A stretch of 63,387 nucleotides of DNA, counting the filler, from Asterionella formosa (Eukaryota), in NCBI GenBank assembly GCA_002256025.1. It is 3 parts of 3 records of this genome, joined end to end, with 100 filler letters (N's around TTAATTAATTAA, not from the genome) between each part and the next. Parts side by side here need not be neighbours in the genome. Positions count along the whole stretch, not along the records: positions 1 to 30,647 come from NKIB01000835.1; 2 more parts are not named here. One strand, written 5' to 3'. The position numbers and the translations under genes were made by a program. This document shows, one piece after another, positions 1-61,520 of this stretch (position 1 is its first letter; each line of letters starts with the position of its first letter). Below the pieces are notes generated by a model. That model saw nothing but the letters and a program-made list of their open reading frames with translations, was not told the DNA's origin and searched no databases.

Positions 1-172
1 GAAGTTGAATGGTGATAGGGTTGGTGGTAGGTCGTTTGTTGATGACAGGTAAATCAACAGTGGCGTAATTGCCAGAACTACCAGAATCAGCAATGAGTGT
101 GACGGGGGGACAAGTGATGGGAGATAACTTTGTGTTAATAGTATTATCGGCAGCAACTTGCTCCCCTCCACA
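1..172 (-). CDS. pol: N-terminus of pol (aspartic protease), in frame with gag after TGA; partial
   Basis: Manual translation after the gag stop: CGGEQVAADNTINTKLSPITCPPVTLIADSGSSGNYATVDLPVINKRPTTNPITIQL; no stop and no Met. Confidence 0.8.
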
Positions 173-1261
173 TCAAGCAAGTGGTGAAGGTGGCGGTGAA
201 ACACGGGGTGGCCGGGTAGGACGGGGACCATCACTGAACAGACGGACGCTGCCACCCAGACGTCGATCAAGGGTGGCATTGAGTTGATGGCCAGAAGCTG
301 GATGATTGCAAGTTGCACTGGTATGGTCAGGGTTTTTGGTAAGACCATGAGTCCAACAATAGCCTAATTGGACATTGTTGTAAGTGTATCCAGAAGGGAC
401 AGCACGAGCAGCGGCAGCAATAGCTGGCAATGGGGGAGGGCCACTGGTTTGAATGGCAGCATGGGCACCATGATAACCGGCAGTGGTGGCGGTGGCAAGG
501 CGCAATCGTTCCTTATCAGCATGCATGAAATGTGGGCAAAAATTAACCCATGTACGGTCCAGCTCAGCGCGATCACGCCAAGTTTGAATGCTATGCGAAT
601 ATACACCAGCCTGTTCTAAAGCAGAAAGAGTCAATCGCATGACAGTACTGTCAGAGAAAGGTTCTCCACCAGCATCAGCAATGGCACGAAGATGTTTGAT
701 GCGGATCCATAAATGCTCAATAGGTTCCTCTGGTGTCCAAGCATCGGCCAAGCGCATGCGATTGAGTTCCAAATCATCCGCACTCAATGTTGCATATGTA
801 GATTCTAAGTGAGCAAGTAAGGTCAGAACAGTGATGTCTGCATATCCAAATGTAGCATCTTCCAGAACGTTGTAGTAGGTTGGGTCAATGGCTGTTAGAA
901 TTTGTTGTCGGAGAATTTCACGGATTTGGGAGTAACGGCGGAATGCGTCAAGGGAGGTGTCAAAGAGACAGTTGGCAGCAGTGATTTGGGACTGTGTTGC
1001 AGTAGCACTGTGTGTCGGCTGGATGCCGGGATGTTCGGGCGGTACAAAGGGTTCACCGGCACGTAAGAGATAAGGAGCAGCAGCCATGACAATACCAAGG
1101 AAACCATTGGCACCACCACCACTGGTACAGTGGACAGAGCGAGCGTTGGCAAAGAGTTCCTTGCGAAGGCGGGTTACAGTGAAGGCTGTAGGTTTGCCCT
1201 CGATCGGCGTCAAGAGCGGATGAGGGAAGGGGAAAACAGCGGAAACGATTGGAGTCGTCAT
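173..1261 (-). CDS. gag: Gag-like protein of CoDi-type Copia element
   Basis: Intact 362-aa ORF; N-terminal FPHPLLTPIEGKP..NARSV..GGGANGFLG and C-terminal YCWTHG-x5-H-x4-C-x6-H motifs typical of diatom Copia gag; ATG in ccaccATG context. Confidence 0.85.
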   Translation of the reverse strand: MTTPIVSAVFPFPHPLLTPIEGKPTAFTVTRLRKELFANARSVHCTSGGGANGFLGIVMAAAPYLLRAGEPFVPPEHPGIQPTHSATATQSQITAANCLFDTSLDAFRRYSQIREILRQQILTAIDPTYYNVLEDATFGYADITVLTLLAHLESTYATLSADDLELNRMRLADAWTPEEPIEHLWIRIKHLRAIADAGGEPFSDSTVMRLTLSALEQAGVYSHSIQTWRDRAELDRTWVNFCPHFMHADKERLRLATATTAGYHGAHAAIQTSGPPPLPAIAAAARAVPSGYTYNNVQLGYCWTHGLTKNPDHTSATCNHPASGHQLNATLDRRLGGSVRLFSDGPRPTRPPRVSPPPSPLA

Positions 1262-1408
1262 GGTGGAAGAAGGCCTGAGAGACAGGGACAGCGAACGGGC
1301 AAGCGGTGCTGGACGGTTGATTGTTGAGACCAGTGCTGGTTTGCACTGTCGACAAGACCCGCAACTTCGCAGGTGCGGACAAGAGAGAAAGAACAGATAT
1401 TGTAGTTC

Positions 1409-1575
1409 TGTTGAGGGGAACCTTATCGTGAATAAAGGTGAACTACAATATTATGACTATTCTATTGCTGTTCCAAGTACATCGTTGTTAGCACTCACGC
1501 ATGTACCTAATCTGGTGGCTGCGCCGGTATGGTTCGTACGGCGCATGTATGGAGCATCATATGCAGATATTAACA
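1409..1575 (-). repeat. Putative 5' LTR (~167 bp)
   Basis: Starts tgttgagg and ends attaaca on + (TGTT/AACA termini); ~150 bp upstream of gag ATG; second LTR is outside the window so the boundaries are unconfirmed. Confidence 0.65.
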
Positions 1576-1797
1576 AAATGATCCCTTCACTATTTGTCAC
1601 CGGTATACATATATCTTATTACAATATCGAACTTTTTAAGTCGTTCATTTTGGATTTTAGTGGTCTTAAGCCATCCATATATTCCACGTCATGTATATAT
1701 ATTATTTACAGATAAACGGTTAGAAAATGACTAGTTTTCCATATTTTCTCCAATTTCTTGTGTCAACTGACGTCGATTTATTGTGCAAACACATAAA

Positions 1798-4899: not shown

Positions 4900-6065
4900 A
4901 TCGTTGAGCATTGCATGTCGGCGTAGTGAGTCGAAATTAACGATGAGTACCAGTAGCTGTCAAAGATTGAATTCGTAAAATCGTTTATTTAGAGCTGTTT
5001 CATATTTTAACATTCAATGCTTGTCGCCATAGTACTAGTGAGTCGAAATTGAGATGTGCCGCAATGGCCTTCTCCGTTTTGGAGCAGCTACAAATAGTCT
5101 ACCGCAATAACTTTAGTAAGCACAATAAAGAAACGAATGAAGGAATGAGTAGCTGACAACAATTGAATTCGTAAATTCGTTAAGAAACAGCTGTTGCATA
5201 TTTTAATATTCAATGCATGTCATTGTAGTGAGTCGAAATTGAGATGTGCCGCAATGGCCGTCTCAATTTCGGAGCAGCTAGCAATAGTCTGAAGCGACAA
5301 CTTTAGCAAGTACAATATAGAAAAAGAATCAAACGATGAGTGCCAGTAGCTGTCAAAGATTGAATTTGCTAATTCGTTTGGGAACAGCTGTTGCATATTT
5401 TATCATTAAATACATGTCGCCATAGTGAGTCAAAATTGAGATGTTGTGCCGCAATGGCATTCTCTGTTTTGGAGCAGCTGCAAATAGTCTGCAGCGATAA
5501 CCCTAGAGAGTAAAATATAGAAAAAAATAAGCAAAAGATTAGTAGCTGTCAATGATTGAACTCGTTGATTTGTTTAGAAACAGCTGTTGCATATTCTGCC
5601 ATTCAATGCATGTCGCCGTAGCACGAGTGAGTCGAAATTGAGATGTGCCACAATTACCGTCTCCTCTTCGGAACGGCTACAAATAGTCTTCAGCGATAAC
5701 TCTAGCAATTACAATGTATAAAGAGAACCAAAGGATGAGTAGCTGTCAACGATTGAATTCGTAAATTCGTTTAGGAACAGCTGTTGCATATTTCAACATT
5801 CAGTGCATGTCGCCGTAGTGAGTTGAGATTGAGATGTGCTGTAATGTCCTTCTCCGGTTTGGAGCAGATAGCAATATTCTGAAGCGATAACTTTAGCAAG
5901 TACAATATAGAAAAAGAAGGAAAGGATGAGTAGCTGACAACAATTTAATTCATAAATTCGTTAAGAGACAGCTGTTGCATATTTTAACATTTATTGTATG
6001 TCACCATAGTGAGTCAAAATTTAGATGTGGCTGCCGCAATGGCATTCTCCTTTTCTGATAGGCTA
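4900..6065. repeat. Diverged tandem array 1, ~190-200 bp unit, ~6 copies
   Basis: Anchor gtgagtcgaaattgagatgtg (variants) recurs at ~4926, 5038, 5228, 5425, 5627, 5818, 6009, with shared ggagcagcta, gagtagctgtcaa and cagctgttgcatatt blocks. Confidence 0.95.
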
Positions 6066-6419
6066 GAATACATCTACATTAATAACTGTATTATAAACAA
6101 GTTGGTTGTAAAGGCAAGGGCCAAGGAAATGAGGACTATCAACTTCATTGAATTCAACCACTTCATAACCTGTATTTTTCGCAATATTTCGCATTTTTTC
6201 TGCACACCACCATTCAATAGACTCCAAAAATATTTGCTGATGTCTGATTTGACCAATAAAGAAACTCTTAGAAATTTAGTAGATCGATGCAATTTGGTAG
6301 AGAATAATAGCTTTGAGTTTGGTGCATCCCTGGTGCTCATGTACTAACTATCATCACGGCATACTAGCGCATCCTACTATGGTAGTAAATCAAAAATGAG
6401 AAGTGCCACAATTGCCATC

Positions 6420-7545
6420 TACACATCCTGATGCCTCTTTTGATCAAAATATTTTTGGTATGAGTATATCGACATTTGCCTTGACGGCATTGATCTCGTG
6501 TACATCAAATACTATGCTGAAAAGAAATCGGCTTTAAATTCTTGGTGGAGAATGATGGTTTGGAATTTCCGTTGCTACTGCACTGCCTGGTCATGCAGCA
6601 GTCCACAGCAAGCAGCGAAATCTTACACATCCTGATGAAAAATTTGATCAATATATATTCGTTCTAAGAATATCGACATTTGCCATGACGACATTGATCT
6701 CGTGTACATCAAATACTACGCTGGATAGAGGAAAGCAGTCTTAAATTGGTTGAGAAAGATGGTTTGGAATTTTTTTCAACAGCACTGGCTGATGATCAGT
6801 CCACAGCAAGCACAGAGTATTTTCAAATCATCCTGATGACAAATTTGATCAATATATGTTTGTTCTGATAATATCGATATTCGAAATGAGTGCACTGATC
6901 TCGTGTACATCTAATACTATGCTGGATAAAATCGGCTCCATATTCTTGGTGGAGAAAGGTGGTTTGCAATTTTTGTTGCCACAGCACTGATGATCAGTCC
7001 ACAAGCACAGAAAATTTACATATCCTGATGACCAATTTGATATATATTTTTCTTTCTGAGAATATCGACATTGTCCATGACAACATTGATCTCGTGTACA
7101 TCGAATACTATGATGGACAGAAAGCAGCCTTAAATTAGCTGAGAAAAATGGTTTGCAATACTGGTCATGCAGCAGTACGCAGCAAGCACCGATATTTTAC
7201 ACATCCTGATGAACAATTTGATCAATATATGTTGGTTCTTAGTAGTATTTACAAAATTTACACATCCTGATACTTTCATTGATCAATATATGTTCGTTCT
7301 GAGCATATCAACATTCGAAATGACGGCAGTGATTTCTTGTAAATCAAATACTATGCTAGAAAGAAATCGGCCTTAAATTGGTTGAGAAGGGTTGTTTGGA
7401 ATTTTTGTTGCTTCTGCACTAATGATCAGGCCACAAGCACCGAAAATTTACACACCATCCTGATGACAGATTTGATCAATATATGTTTGTTCTTAGCATT
7501 TCGACATTCGAAATAACGGCATTGATCTCGTGTACATCGAATTCG
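6420..7545. repeat. Diverged tandem array 2, ~180-205 bp unit, ~6 copies plus a partial
   Basis: Anchor catcctgatga..tttgatcaatatat..attgatctcgtgtacatc recurs at ~6421, 6626, 6828, 7019, 7199 (partial), 7261, 7455. Confidence 0.95.
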
Positions 7546-8299
7546 ATCAATACTACAAGTAAGCATAGACTGCGCCGGCTTTTTCTGAAGTGCAATGTAC
7601 AAAAATTTAGTACAAAATGAATGTCGACAAGGAGGACCATCTGCGCCAGTTTTCTTAATTAAAAGCAGCTGCTGGAATGAAAGGAACAAAATATCACATT
7701 CATGGTAAAATGAAATTTTTGTGATTGCTATTGTTGTCGTCTTTGTCGTCTTTTCTGCTATCATGGTTGTGTTCTCGTTGTCGTTATCGCTGTCCCTGTT
7801 GTTTCTGCTGTCATTTTTCTTGTTCTTATTCTATTGTTTCATTTTGGCTACTGTGGCTGTATAATCTTCTCTTCCTTGGTATTCTTTGCCCTGCGTTTGA
7901 ACTTGAACATGCATTGTTTGATATGGAATGTAAAAAGGTCTTGTTTGTTAATAACCAGCCATCATCTGACTCTGTCAATCTTGGCTGTTCTTCTCTTCCA
8001 GATAACAAGGAATCTGTTGTGGGCGAGTTCCTCTGAAAGAAACAGGCAGGCATTTTTTGTTTCTCCTTTTCATCACAGAAAGGATGCATCTGAAAGATCG
8101 AAAAATATATGGTTGCTATTAATATATTGGGAAAAGGAAACAGGTCTTGTGATACATTGTTGTTGTTCTTTTTTGTTGCTCTGCACCGTCGTTTTCTTCG
8201 TCTTGTCTTCAAAACTATGCATGTTTGATTGTTGTTGAAGTTCCTTTACCACCATTTAGTTTTTCCTCGTGCTTATGCCGTTTGGAATTGGAAAAGTGG

Positions 8300-9595
8300 T
8301 CAGTCATGAACTTACTCTGCGAACCTTGTTCTTTTTCTACAGACAACCAATCTGTTTTTGGCAGGGCAGGGTTGAACCTTGGTGGGAACAATGAAATGCG
8401 TCGTGCTCTGTGTCAGGAAGGCTATCCTGTGTCAGGCAGACTATCAATCTTTTGTAATTCGCATTGTTGAATGAATTCTTCTGGTCAAATGGGAAAATCA
8501 TACTATACATGGTAAGCAAGTGCAACGTTTTCTTGCCTTCTGCTGATATTGTTTGCTGTTGCTTGCTGTGGATCTCCTCTCCTATTCTACTTCGTCTTTG
8601 TTCGGAAATGTTAGCGCATGCATTGCTTTTTTGTCATGAATTAGATGAAGGGCTTGATTGTGTACATGTTATTTGTTGATCACGAACTTACTCTGCAAAC
8701 GCTGTTCTTTGTCTACAGACAATCAATCTGTTGAGCGAGAGATTCTTTGGGAATCAGGCGGTATGGTAAGCACAACGAAAACGATGCCTTAGTAACAATT
8801 GTTTGTTCATGAACTCACTCTTCGATTGTTGGCCATTGGGGAACATGGTAAAGAGCAAAACATAACCGAAAGCATGGCTTTGCAACTTTTGTTTTCTCAT
8901 CAACTCACTCTGAAAATGTTGCCCTCTTTCTAAAACAGAAAATCAATCTGAGCAATGAGAATGAGCAGTCGGCTCATTTGATATGAATTCATCTACCGGT
9001 AGTAGGTAACAGGGACTCCTGCAAGTATCTCATGAGTAGCCAAGCAATCTTGCAATTATTAGTTACAGCATCCAGGCAGCTGCAAGAATGAACATGCATT
9101 GCTTGTCGTATTGGTTTAAGAATTGCGTTCTATAGAAAGTATCAATATAAACTATATAGCGAAGCGATTAATTTGATTGATTTTGTGATTGTAGAATTAA
9201 ATTGAAATGTTGATTGGTTACACATACTACTTATTTGTTTGATTAGCGTATATATTTGTTTAACCTTCTTAAGGAATTAATGTGATCAAAGTAAAGATAA
9301 AATGGGAGCAAACAAACAGAATTAATGGTAGTCAGAGTGAAGAATAGTATTTGTGAACGGAAATGTTGCGAATTGTCGAGAAAAGTAGCGTATTATAGAG
9401 AATATTAATGAACAAATTTTTCTTTGTGTCGCCAGAAAATATTGTCAGTTGGCCCCAAAAATTATGTGGGTTTCTAAAATAATTGTGGAAGTTGTCGAAA
9501 CTATTTTAGTTCACTCCTTTCATATATATTGTATGATGCATCATATTTTCTATGTGATGTCATATCCTGCTTAAATTATGTGCGAGAGCGATGGG
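8300..9595 (-). repeat. Dispersed repeat (probable end of a non-autonomous element) with internal ~130-bp repeated cassettes; further copies at 25.76-26.11 kb (direct) and 26.19-26.90 kb (inverted)
   Basis: 9421-9483 ttggccccaaaaattatgtgggtttctaaaataatt is the reverse complement of 26203-26240; similarity continues to ~8720/26900; 8540-8845 matches 25760-26110 directly. Confidence 0.9.
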
Positions 9596-30647: not shown

Positions 30648-30747
30648 NNNNNNNNNNNNNNNNNNNNNNNNNNNNNNNNNNNNNNNNNNNNTTAATTAAT
30701 TAANNNNNNNNNNNNNNNNNNNNNNNNNNNNNNNNNNNNNNNNNNNN
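30648..30747. other. Artificial 100-bp contig spacer N44-TTAATTAATTAA-N44 (same spacer at 61367-61466)
   Basis: Identical six-frame-stop linker embedded in Ns twice. Confidence 0.95.
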
Positions 30748-30874
30748 ATCTAGCAGGAAGGCTAGAAGCAGAGACAAGAGAGAAAGTGAGTGGTACTAGG
30801 TAGTACTACGATCACGTAAGAGTCTACGTGAAGAGAGACCCAACCCGCGGGAAGGAGTACGGACCATTTCAACA
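30748..30874 (+). mobile_element. 3' part of a Copia LTR, same family as the element at 59.6 kb
   Basis: 127 bp matching 59888-60014 with 3 substitutions seen; ends ...catttcaaca. Confidence 0.95.
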
Positions 30875-31076
30875 CACCCAGCCACATTCTCAAAACGGTG
30901 ACGATGGAGCACGGTGCATAAAATGAGCAAGAGGGGACCTTACTATATTACAGTAGATGTGTTGAAATTACCCTCGCAGTAGACTCAAAACATCATTACC
31001 TGTAATCTGGTTGACAATTTGCCCCCGTATTTGGCATACTGTCTCGATAATGCATACAAATGCCCATCGAACACCT

Positions 31077-32384: not shown

Positions 32385-33474
32385 TTTGATATCGTTTGAT
32401 GTGATGATAAATGTAAACTGAGGAGTAGGGAGGAAGAAGTTGTTAGCAATCGAGGTGAAAGATGAAGGCAAATGACTAGCGATTGCAGAATTCCTCTAAA
32501 TCTAAGAAACGCATGCAACATGCCGCACAAGCTGAAATTTGCATGGGTAACGAAGGCACAGGCAGTAATCAAAAAACTGCCAATGGAGTATTTTGTCGTT
32601 CGCAGTCGCCGCTACAAAAGCACTTGCATCGAAATTGCTTTCCCCTTTATTTGGATAGAGCCACTCTACTCCTACACTCATGTATCCGTTGAGAACGCCA
32701 TGACCAGCAAGGAGCACACACCTTTCAAAGAAGTAGTTTACGATAATCCCGATGCCTCACGAAACCCCTTTTCAGTTTTTGAGTAAGCAGCAAAAGGTAA
32801 GTTTAGTCGAAGGCGTCGGCCATCGATAAATGGTCGCAGGGGTCGATTGTCCATCATAATTCGAGAAGCAAACAAGAGCGATGCTGAACTTACCGGTATA
32901 CCGGTATGTACCTGCGCGCTGTAAGATACCGCTCAGCTGTACCGGTATTATACCTGGTATGTACCAGTTGTCATCTTGACTCTACATACATATATGCACC
33001 GGTATGTAAATCACATCCACCAACCAGTAGCTATCAGGAGCAGCAGGACTGGTGTCCGTTCAAACATATATTTTGGTGGCGTGGTATTATGAGATTCATG
33101 CGTTCGTGGTGGTCCCGGTAGTGCAGTCGTCCGGTTTATTGTTGCTACTCCGAGTAGTACCAGGTACCAGGTAAACCATATCGTATGTTGTTGTGTGTAC
33201 TTACGGTAGACTACAATTCCTATCTAGCCTTACATATGATAAATGTTGTCGTAGAGAAAAGAATACGTTCTGTTATCGTGTGTTCTTTAGCCGGCTTCTC
33301 TTCTCGGGTTTCTTGATGTACGGGTTTTGTATTGTGCATCTTCGATGCGAAGCCTATCATTATTTACCGGTAGTATGGTACTGGATCTGATTTGTTACTT
33401 GTTGAAAATCTCAAAACATCCACAAAACTAGGTAGACAAAATTGATTTCAAAAATATAACTAGAAGCTTTACCC

Positions 33475-35802
33475 ATGGCGTATCGAGTTCTCTTTCAAAG
33501 CCGGTGCTCGATAGCGAGAGCAACCAATCGTCATCCAGCGCGACGAATGGCACGATCCTTTTCGATTTTGACTGATGATTTCCTTGACTATGTGAAGCCG
33601 AAATCGGTCGAACAGTGGGAAAAATTGGCAGAAAAGGAACTGAGAGGCGCTACAACCGTCGATGCAATGCGGACTCAGCGAATCACTCCTGAGGGCATTG
33701 CCCTCCAACCAGTCTATTTCGATCTCAAAGACGAGAATCCTGATATGCCAGGCGTTTTCCCCTACACGAGAGGTCCTTACGCTACCATGTACACGCATCG
33801 GCCCTGGACAATTCGTCAATACGCTGGATTTTCTACAGCTGAAGAGTCGAATGCCTTTTACAAACAGAACCTTAATGCCGGTCAACAGGGTCTAAGTGTC
33901 GCATTTGACTTGGCGACTCACCGAGGTTATGACAGTGATCATGATCGAGTTGTCGGAGATGTGGGCATGGCAGGTGTGCCAATCGATTCTATTTTGGATA
34001 TGAAGATTCTATTCGATGATATAGACTTGACGAAAGTATCGGTTAGTATGACCATGAATGGAGCTGTTCTCCCAATCTTGGCCATGTATGTTCAAACCGC
34101 CATAGAACAGAACCCAGGGAAAGATGCAGCCGAAGTTTTGCCGAAGCTTCAAGGAACCATTCAAAATGACATTCTGAAAGAATTTATGGTGAGAAACACT
34201 TACATATATCCACCCGAGCCAAGCATGAGAGTCATTTCTGATATTATGGGTTATCTGGCTGGGAACATGCCTAAGTTCAATTCAATTTCCATTTCGGGAT
34301 ATCACATGCAAGAGGCCGGAGCAGATGCAGCATTAGAAATGGCCTTTACAATTGCTGATGGTCTTGAGTACATGCGTACTGCCGTCAAGCACGCGCATCT
34401 AGATGTCGATCAGGTAGCTCCTCGGCTCTCATTCTTTTGGGGGATTGGAATGAACTACTACACGGAGATCGCGAAACTTCGAGCCGCTCGTAAAGTATGG
34501 GCTCAAATGATTCAAGAGGAATTCAGGCCCAAGAGTGACAAGTCATTATTGCTCAGAACGCACTGCCAAACCTCAGGTTACTCTCTGACAGAAGCACAGC
34601 CAATGAATAATATCATCAGAACAACAATTGAAGCCATGGCTGCAGTGCAAGGTGGCACTCAGTCGCTGCACACAAACTCCTATGATGAAGCCGTTGGCCT
34701 TCCAACGGTTCAGACAGCCCGTGTGGCTCGCAATACCCAACTCATTCTACAAGATGAAACTGGAATATGTGATGTCGCTGATCCTTGGGGAGGCAGCTAC
34801 ATGATGGAATCGCTTACGACGGAGATCGAAGAGAAGGCTCGAGCCATTATCAAGGAAGTTGAAGATATGGGTGGCATGACTAAGTATATTGCCAGCGGTA
34901 TGGCCAAAATGAGAATTGAAGAGAGTGCGACACGCAAACAAGGCAGAATCGATTCTTGTCAAGATATTGTAGTCGGTGTCAACAAATACACTCTCAGTAA
35001 GGAGGAGGAAGCAATAGAGCGAACGAATGTGTTGCAAATTGACAATTCAGCGGTTCGAGAGGAGCAAATTTCTCGAATCGAAATGATGAAAGCGAATCGA
35101 GATGAAGCTGCGGCTCAAGAGATCCTTGGCAAGTTAGAAGCAAGCGCCAGGATGGAGCGAAGTACAAGTGCTGGTGACGATCCCGACAACCTGATGAAAC
35201 TTTGTATTGATGCAGCCAGAATCCGATGCACGCTTGGTGAAATATCAATGGCACTTGAAAATGCATGGGGTCGTCATGTTCCTACCACAAATGTCGTGCA
35301 GGGAGCTTATCACTCTTCTTTTACTTCTGGAAACAAGAAGGACAGTGAATACGAGGATATTCTTAAGCTTGTGAATAAGTTTGCAGAAACCGAAGGACGA
35401 AGGCCTCGAATCTTGGTCGCAAAAATGGGACAGGACGGTCATGATCGAGGAGCCAAAGTGATTGCATCTGGTTTTTCTGATCTTGGCTTCGATGTTGATG
35501 TCGGGCCGCTGTTCCAAACTCCGGCAGAAGTTGCTCTACAAGCGTTGGACGCAGACGTTCATGTAATTGGAATTTCATCGCAAGCAGCCGGGCACAAAAC
35601 CTTGCTTCCAGCACTACAGAAAGAGTTGAATGATCGGGGAGCAAATCACATTGTTGTAGTTGCCGGCGGTGTGATCCCTCCACAGGATTACGAATTTTTG
35701 ATGGACGATACGAAATCGTGCAAAGCCATATTTGGACCAGGAACGAGAATCACAGATGCTGCCAAAGAAGTGTTGCGCCTTATCCCAAAGAGTTCCGTTT
35801 AG
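33475..35802 (+). CDS. MMUT: Methylmalonyl-CoA mutase (adenosylcobalamin-dependent), mitochondrial
   Basis: [56 protein letters not shown] (DxHxxG B12 motif); Arg-rich N-terminal presequence. Confidence 0.98.
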
Positions 35803-59605: not shown

Positions 59606-61366
59606 TGTCAAGAATATTAGCCTGAGTCACAAGGATTGTGGACTCGATTGTAATCGAACGAGTCGAATATTGCATTGCCACGTCAATCAGCTGTCTAAGA
59701 ACGAGATCAGAGATTGAAGATTTCTAAAGAAATGTTAAGTGGAAACTCGAAGAGAGTCTTAGAATGACTTTGCAGGAAGCAAAGATGCATGGAAAGGAAA
59801 CATTTAGTTTAGCTTAAAATTTAATTTGAGTTTTAGATTATCAACCGAGGAAACAGTGTGTTAATTGACAGCAAGATCAATTAGTCTATCTAGCTTGAAG
59901 GCTAGAAGCAGAGACAAGAGAGAAAGTAAGTGGTACTAGGTAGTACTACGATCACGTAAGAGTCTACGTGAAGAGAGACCCAACCCGCGGGAAGGAGTAC
60001 GGACCATTTCAACACGCTTTAAAGCGGATAGGTTTGAAAGGGTACTCAAGATGGGAATTGACGACGAATCGTCAGGAGTGCGGTTGCCAACATTTGATGG
60101 TACCGATGCCAAGTGGCATGTTTGGAAAGCGAAGTTTGTGGCCTATGCCTGCTACAAAGGTTTTGAAGGAATCCTAAGTGGAGATGAAGTATCACCAGGT
60201 GAGAGAGATTCAGCTGGAGTGAAGATTGTTCCGAGCGACAACAATGAGAAGCGTGCGAAACGAAATAATACGGTTGCCTATGCAAGTTTAATTATGGCAT
60301 GTCAGAGTGGACCATTTGGATACGTAAATGGTGCCAGAAGTGAAGAGTTCCCCAATGGAAATGCGAAGGAAGCGTGGGACAAGTTAGTGTCTACGTACGA
60401 GTCAAGTAATATGGCAAATGTGATTGCCTTGTCAGGTCAGTGGACAAAATGCACGATTAACGAGAATGAGAACCCCGACATTTGGTTTGTGGAGTTGGAT
60501 AGAATTCGAGAACGATTGAGTCGTACGAGCTCCGCAATTTCGGATGGTGCCTATGTGGCCCATGTTATCAACAACCTACCGGAAGTCTACAAGAGTTTGG
60601 TGGTTGGAAAATTTGGTCTCGCGAGCTCCGAGCTCACGATCCAAGAGGTCAAGAAGAATGTACGCGACTATTACGATTTGTATGTGCGTGACGAAACCAA
60701 GACGAATAAGAATGGCGAGCAGGCCTTCTTTTCAAAAAGCAAGTTTAAGGGAGACTGCAGGAAGTGTGGCAAGTATGGCCACAAGGCAGTTGATTGCCGA
60801 AGCAAGGGCAATACTACAGAAAAGAGAGAATTAACTCCCGAGCAACGAAATAAGAGAAAGAATGTGAAGTGTTATAATTGCCAGAAGATGGGGCACTATG
60901 CCAGTGAGTGCAACAATCAAAAAAATGCACCAATCAAACAGAAGGGAGAAGACGCCAATACTACTACGCAAGGAATGTTCGTGGTGACGTGTATTGAGGC
61001 AAGGTACAATGAAGAGGTAAATTATACGTGCGTGCATAAGGACCGTTGGCTACTAGATAGTGGCGCTACGGTACATATATGCAATGATGAGCGCATCATG
61101 GAGGACAAGCGCGCAGTGCGTGAAACTGTTCTTGTGGGAAACGGCGCAGCAATTGTTGCGACCGTATCAGGCACGGTGACCCTTACGACGACAGACAAAG
61201 GAAAAGTGTTGAAACTCACCAATGTGCTCTATGCACCGGAGTTCAAGCAGAACATTATCAGTATTTCGAGAATTATTGACAAGGGAAATAAAGTTATGTT
61301 TGACGATGATAAGATGACGATCAGAAACAACAACGGATTTTTGATTTGTAAACGTGATGAAACGAG
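59606..61366 (+). mobile_element. Ty1/Copia retrotransposon: 5' LTR (~59606-60014) plus gag-protease, truncated by the contig end
   Basis: LTR 3' end defined by the second copy at 30748-30874; 5' start (tgtcaagaat) is inferred; ORF follows 36 bp after the LTR. Confidence 0.9.
60051..61366 (+). CDS. Copia gag-pol polyprotein, partial (gag, two CCHC zinc knuckles, protease)
   Basis: LPTFDG..WHVWKAKF, NLPEVYKSLV, CRKCGKYGHKAVDC, CYNCQKMGHYASEC, WLLDSGATVHIC, LTNVLYAPEFKQNIISI; uninterrupted. Confidence 0.95.
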
Positions 61367-61520
61367 NNNNNNNNNNNNNNNNNNNNNNNNNNNNNNNNNN
61401 NNNNNNNNNNTTAATTAATTAANNNNNNNNNNNNNNNNNNNNNNNNNNNNNNNNNNNNNNNNNNNNGGTTTCTGTTCACACAATAATTCTAATTTTTCTA
61501 ACCGTGCAACTTCACGTAGG

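Follow-up and report, generated by a model that had tools for sequence, protein, structure and literature searches.

To our knowledge, self-priming of reverse transcription has been proven experimentally only for the Gypsy-type element Tf1. In Tf1, the cut made by RNase H in the duplexed RNA reportedly releases the primer, and the primer binding site (PBS) is said to be re-copied from that primer. In plants, self-priming has been predicted for 12% of the LTR elements, the criterion being that at least 10 bp, beginning 0–5 bp after the 5′ LTR, are complementary to a region of the LTR (PMC6317226). Among plant Ty1/copia elements, the predictions are confined to the TAR lineage, including Houba and Osr-1, and in the available text of that study they are in silico predictions without experimental proof (PMC6317226). 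The earlier note on the DNA studied here did not know of self-priming as an established mechanism in Copia elements; this holds as far as experimental proof is concerned, but the prediction had already been made for TAR (PMC6317226). The fungal Copia element GalEa has no PBS and a palindromic, conserved hairpin site, for which its authors did not find a complement in the LTR, and it shares a major Copia branch with the CoDi clades of diatoms (PMC5445492). The CoDi elements have the order PR-IN-RT-RH, at most one stop separating gag from pol, and LTRs of 153–844 bp with TG/CA ends in most families (PMC2806351); the main text of the CoDi paper, as far as available, makes no mention of tRNA, priming or a primer binding site. 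Besides, no description of the primer of diatom Copia elements was found among the matches listed in the main-text literature searched.

Judging from its sequence, the window analysed here (the whole stretch of DNA, 63,387 nucleotides, from Asterionella formosa) harbours a diatom LTR retrotransposon of Ty1/Copia order, represented by its 5′ end, with the following features along the element strand.

1576–1580, minus strand: candidate target-site duplication CATTT (as read on the element strand), placed by position only.
1409–1575, minus strand: 5′ LTR of 167 bp, TGTTAA…TCAACA on the element strand, delimited by contig break points, depth and related loci.
1456–1575, minus strand: putative U3 (promoter part of the LTR), comprising everything upstream of the conserved CATAA.
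1451–1455, minus strand: CATAA initiator-like motif with the predicted transcription start (T 1453 or A 1454), from conservation and the fit to a published motif.
1440–1451, minus strand: 5′ arm ATATTGTAGTTC, the proposed self-primer with its 3′ end after C 1440, from complementarity, fold and covariation with the 3′ arm.
1409–1439, minus strand: loop between the arms and end of the LTR, holding an inner stem ACCTT/AAGGT.
1397–1408, minus strand: 3′ arm GAACTACAATAT, at the PBS position and beginning with the first base after the LTR, from complementarity and the LTR boundary.
1262–1396, minus strand: untranslated leader from the PBS to gag, not conserved between families.
173–1261, minus strand: gag ORF of 362 aa with the stop TGA (175–173), supported by 54 homologues.
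1–172, minus strand: beginning of pol, which continues the gag frame beyond the TGA, with the protease motif DSG (codons from 94), from comparison with the relative L001.

The element runs off the window at base 1 and its 3′ end lies outside the window, in which self-comparison found no second copy of 1–1850. Two LTRs with TG…CA ends belong to it, the 5′ LTR in the window and the 3′ LTR seen as junctions with the polypurine tract (PPT) in contigs of four runs and in locus L002. L001, a full-length relative with 99% gag identity, encodes gag-TGA-PR-INT-RT-RH in one frame, and its pol carries DSG, then SH3_retrovirus (residues 441–497), then RVT_2 (914–1030) and then RNase H-like motifs, with Pfam scores below the curated cut-offs (25.5 against 27, and 20.9 bits against 31.6 for RVT_2, PF07727). 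In the protein Atlas, the best 10 family-bearing neighbours all carry RVT_2, with scores of 0.95–0.99. Because the integrase precedes RT, the RVT_2 match, although weak, is present and the Atlas neighbours carry RVT_2, the assignment to Copia (Ty1/Copia, Pseudoviridae) made in the earlier note is supported. Membership of the Tf1/sushi group (Ty3/Gypsy chromoviruses), on the other hand, is excluded, since the integrase precedes RT and the order is not PR-RT-RH-INT. The gag homologues (n = 54) range from 99% to 22% identity and none has a Pfam family; no gag relatives were found in viral contigs.

Regarding the host, the window contains genes for LSM, TTL, a kinase and uS19 and belongs to a eukaryote. 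Its methylmalonyl-CoA mutase (33460–35799) has its best named matches in Cylindrotheca, Bacillariaceae sp., Nitzschia and Mayamaea at 72–77% identity, followed by lower matches in other diatoms (Thalassiosirales) and then in Parmales and oomycetes at 65–67%. As the best named matches are all diatoms, this gene supports the diatom host that had been assumed.

Other repeats were observed in the window. Several arrays of direct repeats of about 190–200 nt, 60–90% alike (families D1–D9), occupy 4950–7570, a minisatellite-like block about 3.4 kb from the element. Elsewhere, a 128-nt direct repeat with 98% identity is found at 30748–30875 and at 59888–60015, 29 kb apart; the former copy lies directly after a pair of 44-N runs (30648–30747), and a second pair of 44-N runs (61367–61466) lies about 1.4 kb beyond the latter. 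This repeat is possibly a scaffold-gap artefact or part of a longer duplicated segment.

The junction between gag and pol was compared in 27 gag-pol loci (the window at 161–175 on the minus strand, L001 at 1289–1303, and 25 more). A single stop codon (TGA, TAG or TAA), in frame with pol, closes gag in all 27, and in 26 of them the gag frame is open far longer than the other two frames, with only 89 nt left in L048. In these 26 loci, the gag stop is followed by a G-rich motif (GGGGAG, GGGAAG or similar) whose end lies 12 nt downstream of it, whichever the stop codon. Taken together, the gag-pol junction looks like a programmed read-through with a downstream signal.

The limits of the LTR were examined by aligning the contigs of two DNA and two RNA public runs to 700–2200. 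Contigs lose their match before 1409 in X1 (n = 17) and X18 (n = 4), and the flanks of the 17 X1 contigs at 1409 are heterogeneous, a consensus agreement of 0.45 indicating many different flanks. Behind 1575, the match is lost in contigs of X1 (n = 25) as well as of X9, X15 and X18, and all these contigs share one continuation, which on the element strand places GGTGAGGGTG directly before the TGTT of the LTR; the shared sequence is the PPT and the 3′ LTR junction. Besides, the depth in X1 is roughly doubled over the LTR (0.60–0.84 million in the bins at 700–1413 vs 1.27–1.92 million in the bins at 1414–1566). Among the related loci, L003 and L031 have unrelated flanks up to the same TGTTAA LTR start, and L002 has the PPT, 167 nt and the PBS in succession, that is, the same LTR length as the window. 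Since the contig breaks at 1409 and 1575, the doubling of depth in X1 and these three loci agree, we place the LTR at 1575–1409, and the break points thus bear out the boundary at 1409 assumed in the earlier note. The 3′ arm therefore starts at the first base after the LTR, the position of a PBS.

Nearly every family of the clade conserves the PPT GGTGAGGGTG and an LTR beginning with TGTTGA, and the distance from the LTR start to CATAA is 73–183 nt in most loci (280 in L053). The LTR end near the PBS was verified in the window's own family and was placed by alignment in the other families, in many of which the LTR ends in TA and not in CA, the LTR end of the L014 group being uncertain. Within the window's own family, none of the variant places listed (n = 40, contigs of the four runs) falls in the arms, and variable sites are located in the loop (1425 and 1428), in the leader (1389) and in U3 (1473, 1475, 1489, 1498 and 1535). 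The element family appears to be very abundant and diverse in the sample of X1, an 'algae metagenome' run, of which 10,638 contigs, 90–100% alike, fall on 700–1575. Contigs of the two RNA libraries (X15 and X18) cover gag, PBS and LTR.

Read across the junction on the minus strand, the LTR ends in …TCAACA, with its terminal CA at 1410–1409, and is followed directly by GAACTACAATAT and CTG…. The 12-mer GAACTACAATAT (1408–1397, minus strand) is the exact reverse complement of the 12-mer ATATTGTAGTTC (1451–1440) within the LTR, and a spacer of 31 nt (1439–1409, minus strand) separates the two arms. Direct reading of the minus strand thus reproduces the observation from which the earlier note set out, and the 12-nt complementarity at the LTR junction is confirmed as real. 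The 12-bp duplex is not extendable, with A/C outside and A/A inside. The fold of the 91-nt region 1380–1470 includes the arm stem (−20.4 kcal/mol, z = −4.82), and none of 200 shuffles was as stable. By an arithmetic estimate, the chance of finding a 12-nt complement in a 167-nt LTR is about 1e-5 (156 places × 4^−12). Measured by the self-primer criterion of PMC6317226 (at least 10 bp, 0–5 bp after the LTR), the 3′ arm of the window element pairs over 12 of 12 nt at 0 bp.

The loop contains an inner stem formed by ACCTT (1439–1435) and AAGGT (1424–1420), which stacks on the duplex and is present in the minimum-energy fold of the ACCTT group, while L026 and L028 have an inner loop stem of their own, different but compensated. 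As a clade-wide feature the inner stem was rejected, being limited to the ACCTT group and L026/L028 and inconsistent elsewhere.

A search of metagenome contigs with a 15-row gag profile yielded 58 loci, 99–22% identical, which make 59 elements with the window. Assessable elements were defined as those with at least 200 nt upstream of gag; this left 43 of the 59, the upstream sequence of the other 16 loci being too short. The hairpin is found at the homologous place in 42 of the 43 assessable elements. A one-mismatch scan had flagged 38 of them, preferring an unrelated stem in L037, L038, L046 and L049, where the homologous hairpin consists of 9 perfect bp, and the sole assessable element without the hairpin is L017, whose upstream region is a tandem repeat. 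The clade derives from marine, freshwater and microbial-mat metagenomes, with gag down to 22% identity. The arms occur in 17 different sequences (nested ones merged), each with its own complement after the LTR; beside ATATTGTAGTTC of the window, examples of the 5′ arm are TTTATCTAGCTC, CGTCTAGTTC, TTTAACTAGCTC, AATTTAGTCAAGTA and ACTTATATAGCTC, and further ones are TTAGGTAGCTC, TTTACGTAACTC, ATTAAGTAGAAC, TTAGTCAGTTC and ATTGACTATAAC. The loci, 193,605 nt in all, contain 63 perfect inverted repeats of at least 9 nt with a loop of 15–60, of which 41 are the hairpin and 22 lie elsewhere.

Some of the related loci have an unusual arrangement. L022 contains, at 557–953, two tandem LTRs 15 nt apart (ATCTT and the PPT-like GATGAGGGTG), the first of which has a decayed 5′ arm and no partner after the LTR; the tandem is possibly a product of aberrant reverse transcription or recombination. 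In L008 (3–473 vs 5537–6009) and L027 (1–3409 vs 5482–8826), diverged elements, 84% and 78% identical, respectively, stand head to tail with apparently one common LTR, and these arrangements are genuine tandem arrays or else the result of chimeric assembly. In many other contigs, a 'circular' collapse has left one internal region and one LTR, with periods of 5.3–5.6 kb.

For the analysis of covariation, 40 hairpin regions, L019 and L039 being left out, were aligned with MAFFT as 31 distinct rows after nine identical rows had been dropped (alignment A3). In A3, 85.1% of 363 cells pair, compared with 25–38% when the partner is slid by 1–3 columns; the figures from A3 are on the low side, because the short-loop L014 group was misplaced by MAFFT and two rows were shifted. 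Changes on both sides are observed in 10 of the 12 pairs, and the double-changed cells number 54, as against a shuffled mean of 16.7. The observed paired cells, double-change pairs, double-change cells and covariation score were each reached by 0/500 shuffles, and the observed further pair types by 3/500. In a second count, the arms of the 31 rows were anchored gap-free at their inner ends; positions 1–9 are then Watson–Crick in 278 of 279 cells, with 2–4 pair types at 8 of the 9 positions, a count biased toward pairing at the innermost positions, as the rows were found via the hairpin. Watson–Crick pairs occur in 27, 27 and 21 of the 31 rows at positions 10, 11 and 12, and in 6, 9, 4 and 12 of them at positions 13, 14, 15 and 16. 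The drop in pairing beyond position 12 gives the duplex a sharp outer edge, and the pair types observed imply no fewer than 20 compensated pair changes. The loop measures 31 nt in 16 of the 31 distinct rows and ranges from 20 to 41 nt.

The compensatory changes between PBS and LTR motif that the earlier note had proposed to look for in related elements are thus present and abundant, with the hairpin in 42 of 43 elements and 10 of 12 pairs double-changed. As read from these alignments, compensatory change has maintained the pairing of the arms during the evolution of the clade. Within the stem, conservation is highest where the 5′ arm ends inwards, at TAG[CT]TC and the A behind it (1440–1446 in the window, and in most loci).

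On the downstream side, no TGG occurs within 20 nt after the LTR end in any of the 31 rows, and A3 shows no conservation of the bases beyond the 3′ arm. The absence of a TGG-type PBS, reported before for the window, extends to all 31 rows. ARAGORN detected no tRNA genes in the window or in the 58 related loci, and Rfam gave no match in the window at gathering scores. Within 1250–1650, nothing tRNA-like was found with Rfam, the sole match, to RsaOG (E = 4.1), being judged a chance match.

Directly upstream of the 5′ arm, every one of the 31 distinct rows of A3 has an unchanged C-A-T-A, and the distance from the T of CATAA to the inner end of the arm is 14, 15 and 16 nt in 5, 22 and 4 rows, respectively. 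In Phaeodactylum, CAY+1A surrounds the mapped starts of FCP genes, and TCAH+1W has been proposed as a diatom initiator-like motif (PMC4686930). CATAA fits both and would place the start at 1453, or at 1454 if the A were the start, as in a classical initiator. The initiator-like motif is present in 68% of 80-nt upstream flanks (PMC4686930) and is of low information alone; it is the invariance of CATAA and its fixed spacing, not the motif itself, that hint at a start near 1451, as predicted in the earlier note. If the start is the T of CAT, 1–7 nt 5′ of the arm would stay unpaired. Contig ends near 1458–1461 and 1429 were considered as marks of transcription start or poly(A) and rejected, as they are bubble edges of the variants at 1425 and 1428; the 5′ ends of L013, L015, L035 and other contigs were also rejected as start marks, as these contigs begin at unrelated places. 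No poly(A)-marking run of at least 10 A or T was found in any related locus.

We consider it quite probable that the window element primes its own reverse transcription in a Tf1-like way. This reading was proposed in the earlier note, and the tests of the LTR boundary and of clade-wide covariation both turned out in its favour. The scheme that follows is our inference as to where transcription starts, where RNase H cuts, how priming proceeds and how far R extends. The RNA would start in the LTR at the invariant CATAA (about 1454–1453), and its first 14–16 nt would fold back over the 31-nt loop, the last 12 nt of the folded stretch (1451–1440) pairing with 1408–1397 directly after the LTR. Across the clade, 9–14 nt at the end of the folded-back RNA start would pair with the PBS. 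The RNase H of the element would cut the RNA behind C 1440, where the duplex ends on its inner side, and the 5′ RNA fragment would then offer a 3′-OH on the PBS. The RT would extend this primer through 1409–1439 and yield strong-stop DNA of about 31 nt, which would jump to the corresponding stretch of the 3′ LTR. G 1408 is the partner of the C at the predicted 3′ end of the primer (1440), and the final A of the LTR (1409) comes next on the template. From this orientation of the primer end, and the geometry of the predicted primer end and the LTR end, the strong-stop figure of about 31 nt expected in the earlier note is therefore correct. If the PBS is re-copied from the primer as in Tf1, this would be the reason why the arms are perfectly matched yet drift between families.

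Unlikely, in our view, is that the hairpin, as a conserved structure of the RNA or DNA, serves some other purpose (packaging, dimerisation, control of gag translation or strand transfer, for instance), and that the primer is something not yet recognised. Although the covariation proves pairing and not priming, and the fungal GalEa is a Copia element with a conserved hairpin of unknown role instead of a PBS (PMC5445492), the 3′ arm of the diatom element lies exactly at the place of a PBS, 0 nt after the verified LTR end, and the 31 rows contain neither another conserved sequence nor a TGG after the LTR. The sharp 12-bp edge and the fixed 14–16 nt to the initiator-like motif, moreover, are expected of a primer but not necessarily of a packaging signal.

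We regard it as very improbable that the PBS binds a host tRNA-derived fragment, the LTR arm being a copy or mimic of that fragment. The reading draws on the 5′ arm ending inwards in TAG[CT]TC and then A in most rows, six or seven bases presumably similar to the conserved first bases of the D-arm in tRNAs, at which short 5′ fragments end. Half-tRNA primers are also known in Copia lineages (PMC6317226), but here the arms differ between families at 10 of 12 positions and are always matched by their own LTR, the arms of L014, L041 and L057 lack the common core, and the outer arm halves are A/T-rich. Moreover, 17 arm sequences go beyond what one host primer would account for, and Rfam gave no tRNA-like match in 1250–1650 (only RsaOG, E = 4.1). 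That the arms are a chance inverted repeat without function, for which nothing more speaks than their shortness, can be dismissed, given the estimated expectation of about 1e-5, the hairpin shared with compensated changes by 42 of 43 assessable relatives, and a background of 22 unrelated repeats in 193.6 kb.

With self-priming preferred for the window element, the balance also tips toward a wider proposal, namely that a clade of diatom Copia-like elements gave up tRNA priming in favour of a minimal self-primer module about 45 nt long, in a development independent of Tf1/sushi and perhaps also of TAR. The module would consist of the initiator, a 14–16-nt primer, a loop of roughly 31 nt that ends the LTR, and the PBS. 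This would be a second Copia clade with a self-priming signature, in a host unrelated to plants and with unusually clean covariation, and it offers a compact, testable model in which about 45 nt hold promoter start, primer, template and PBS. In the annotation of diatom repeats, LTR candidates were filtered by predicted PBS and PPT with LTRdigest (PMC7466962), and if that step seeks tRNA-type sites, self-primed elements would have been missed despite their abundance in at least one algal sample. More generally, if self-priming holds clade-wide, pipelines that demand a tRNA PBS would systematically discard such elements. The finding also bears on whether hairpin priming is ancestral or evolved repeatedly in LTR elements, an idea raised in PMC3601003.

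Compared with the known systems, the diatom element is like Tf1/sushi (Ty3/Gypsy, Metaviridae) in that the PBS after the 5′ LTR complements its own RNA near the predicted start, no TGG-type PBS is present and the fold-back duplex is about 11–12 bp. In part of the diatom clade, as in Tf1/sushi, an inner stem stacks on the duplex, and we take it to resemble the U5-IR stem of Tf1. Unlike Tf1/sushi, the diatom element has the integrase before RT and an RT probably of the RVT_2 type, its proposed start and its PBS are only about 45 nt apart, and the system is known here from sequence alone. With the plant TAR lineage it has the superfamily and the computational signature in common, whereas the host is a diatom and the gag of the window element has no Pfam family, TAR being compared by its description only; the diatom case also rests on covariation across many families, which is not reported for TAR in the available text (PMC6317226). 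GalEa, a Copia element without a tRNA PBS, likewise has a conserved hairpin at the PBS position, but its 9-bp site after the LTR, palindromic together with the last A of the LTR, pairs downstream, whereas the partner in the diatom element lies in the LTR; a palindrome of the GalEa type is absent from the window, where A followed by GAACTACAA is not palindromic. With the CoDi elements, likened by description only, it has in common the diatom host, the order PR-IN-RT-RH, the single gag-pol stop and a short LTR (167 bp here) with TG/CA ends. Overall, the diatom case is best called one of self-primed LTR retrotransposons in a new host group, and not a new mechanism.
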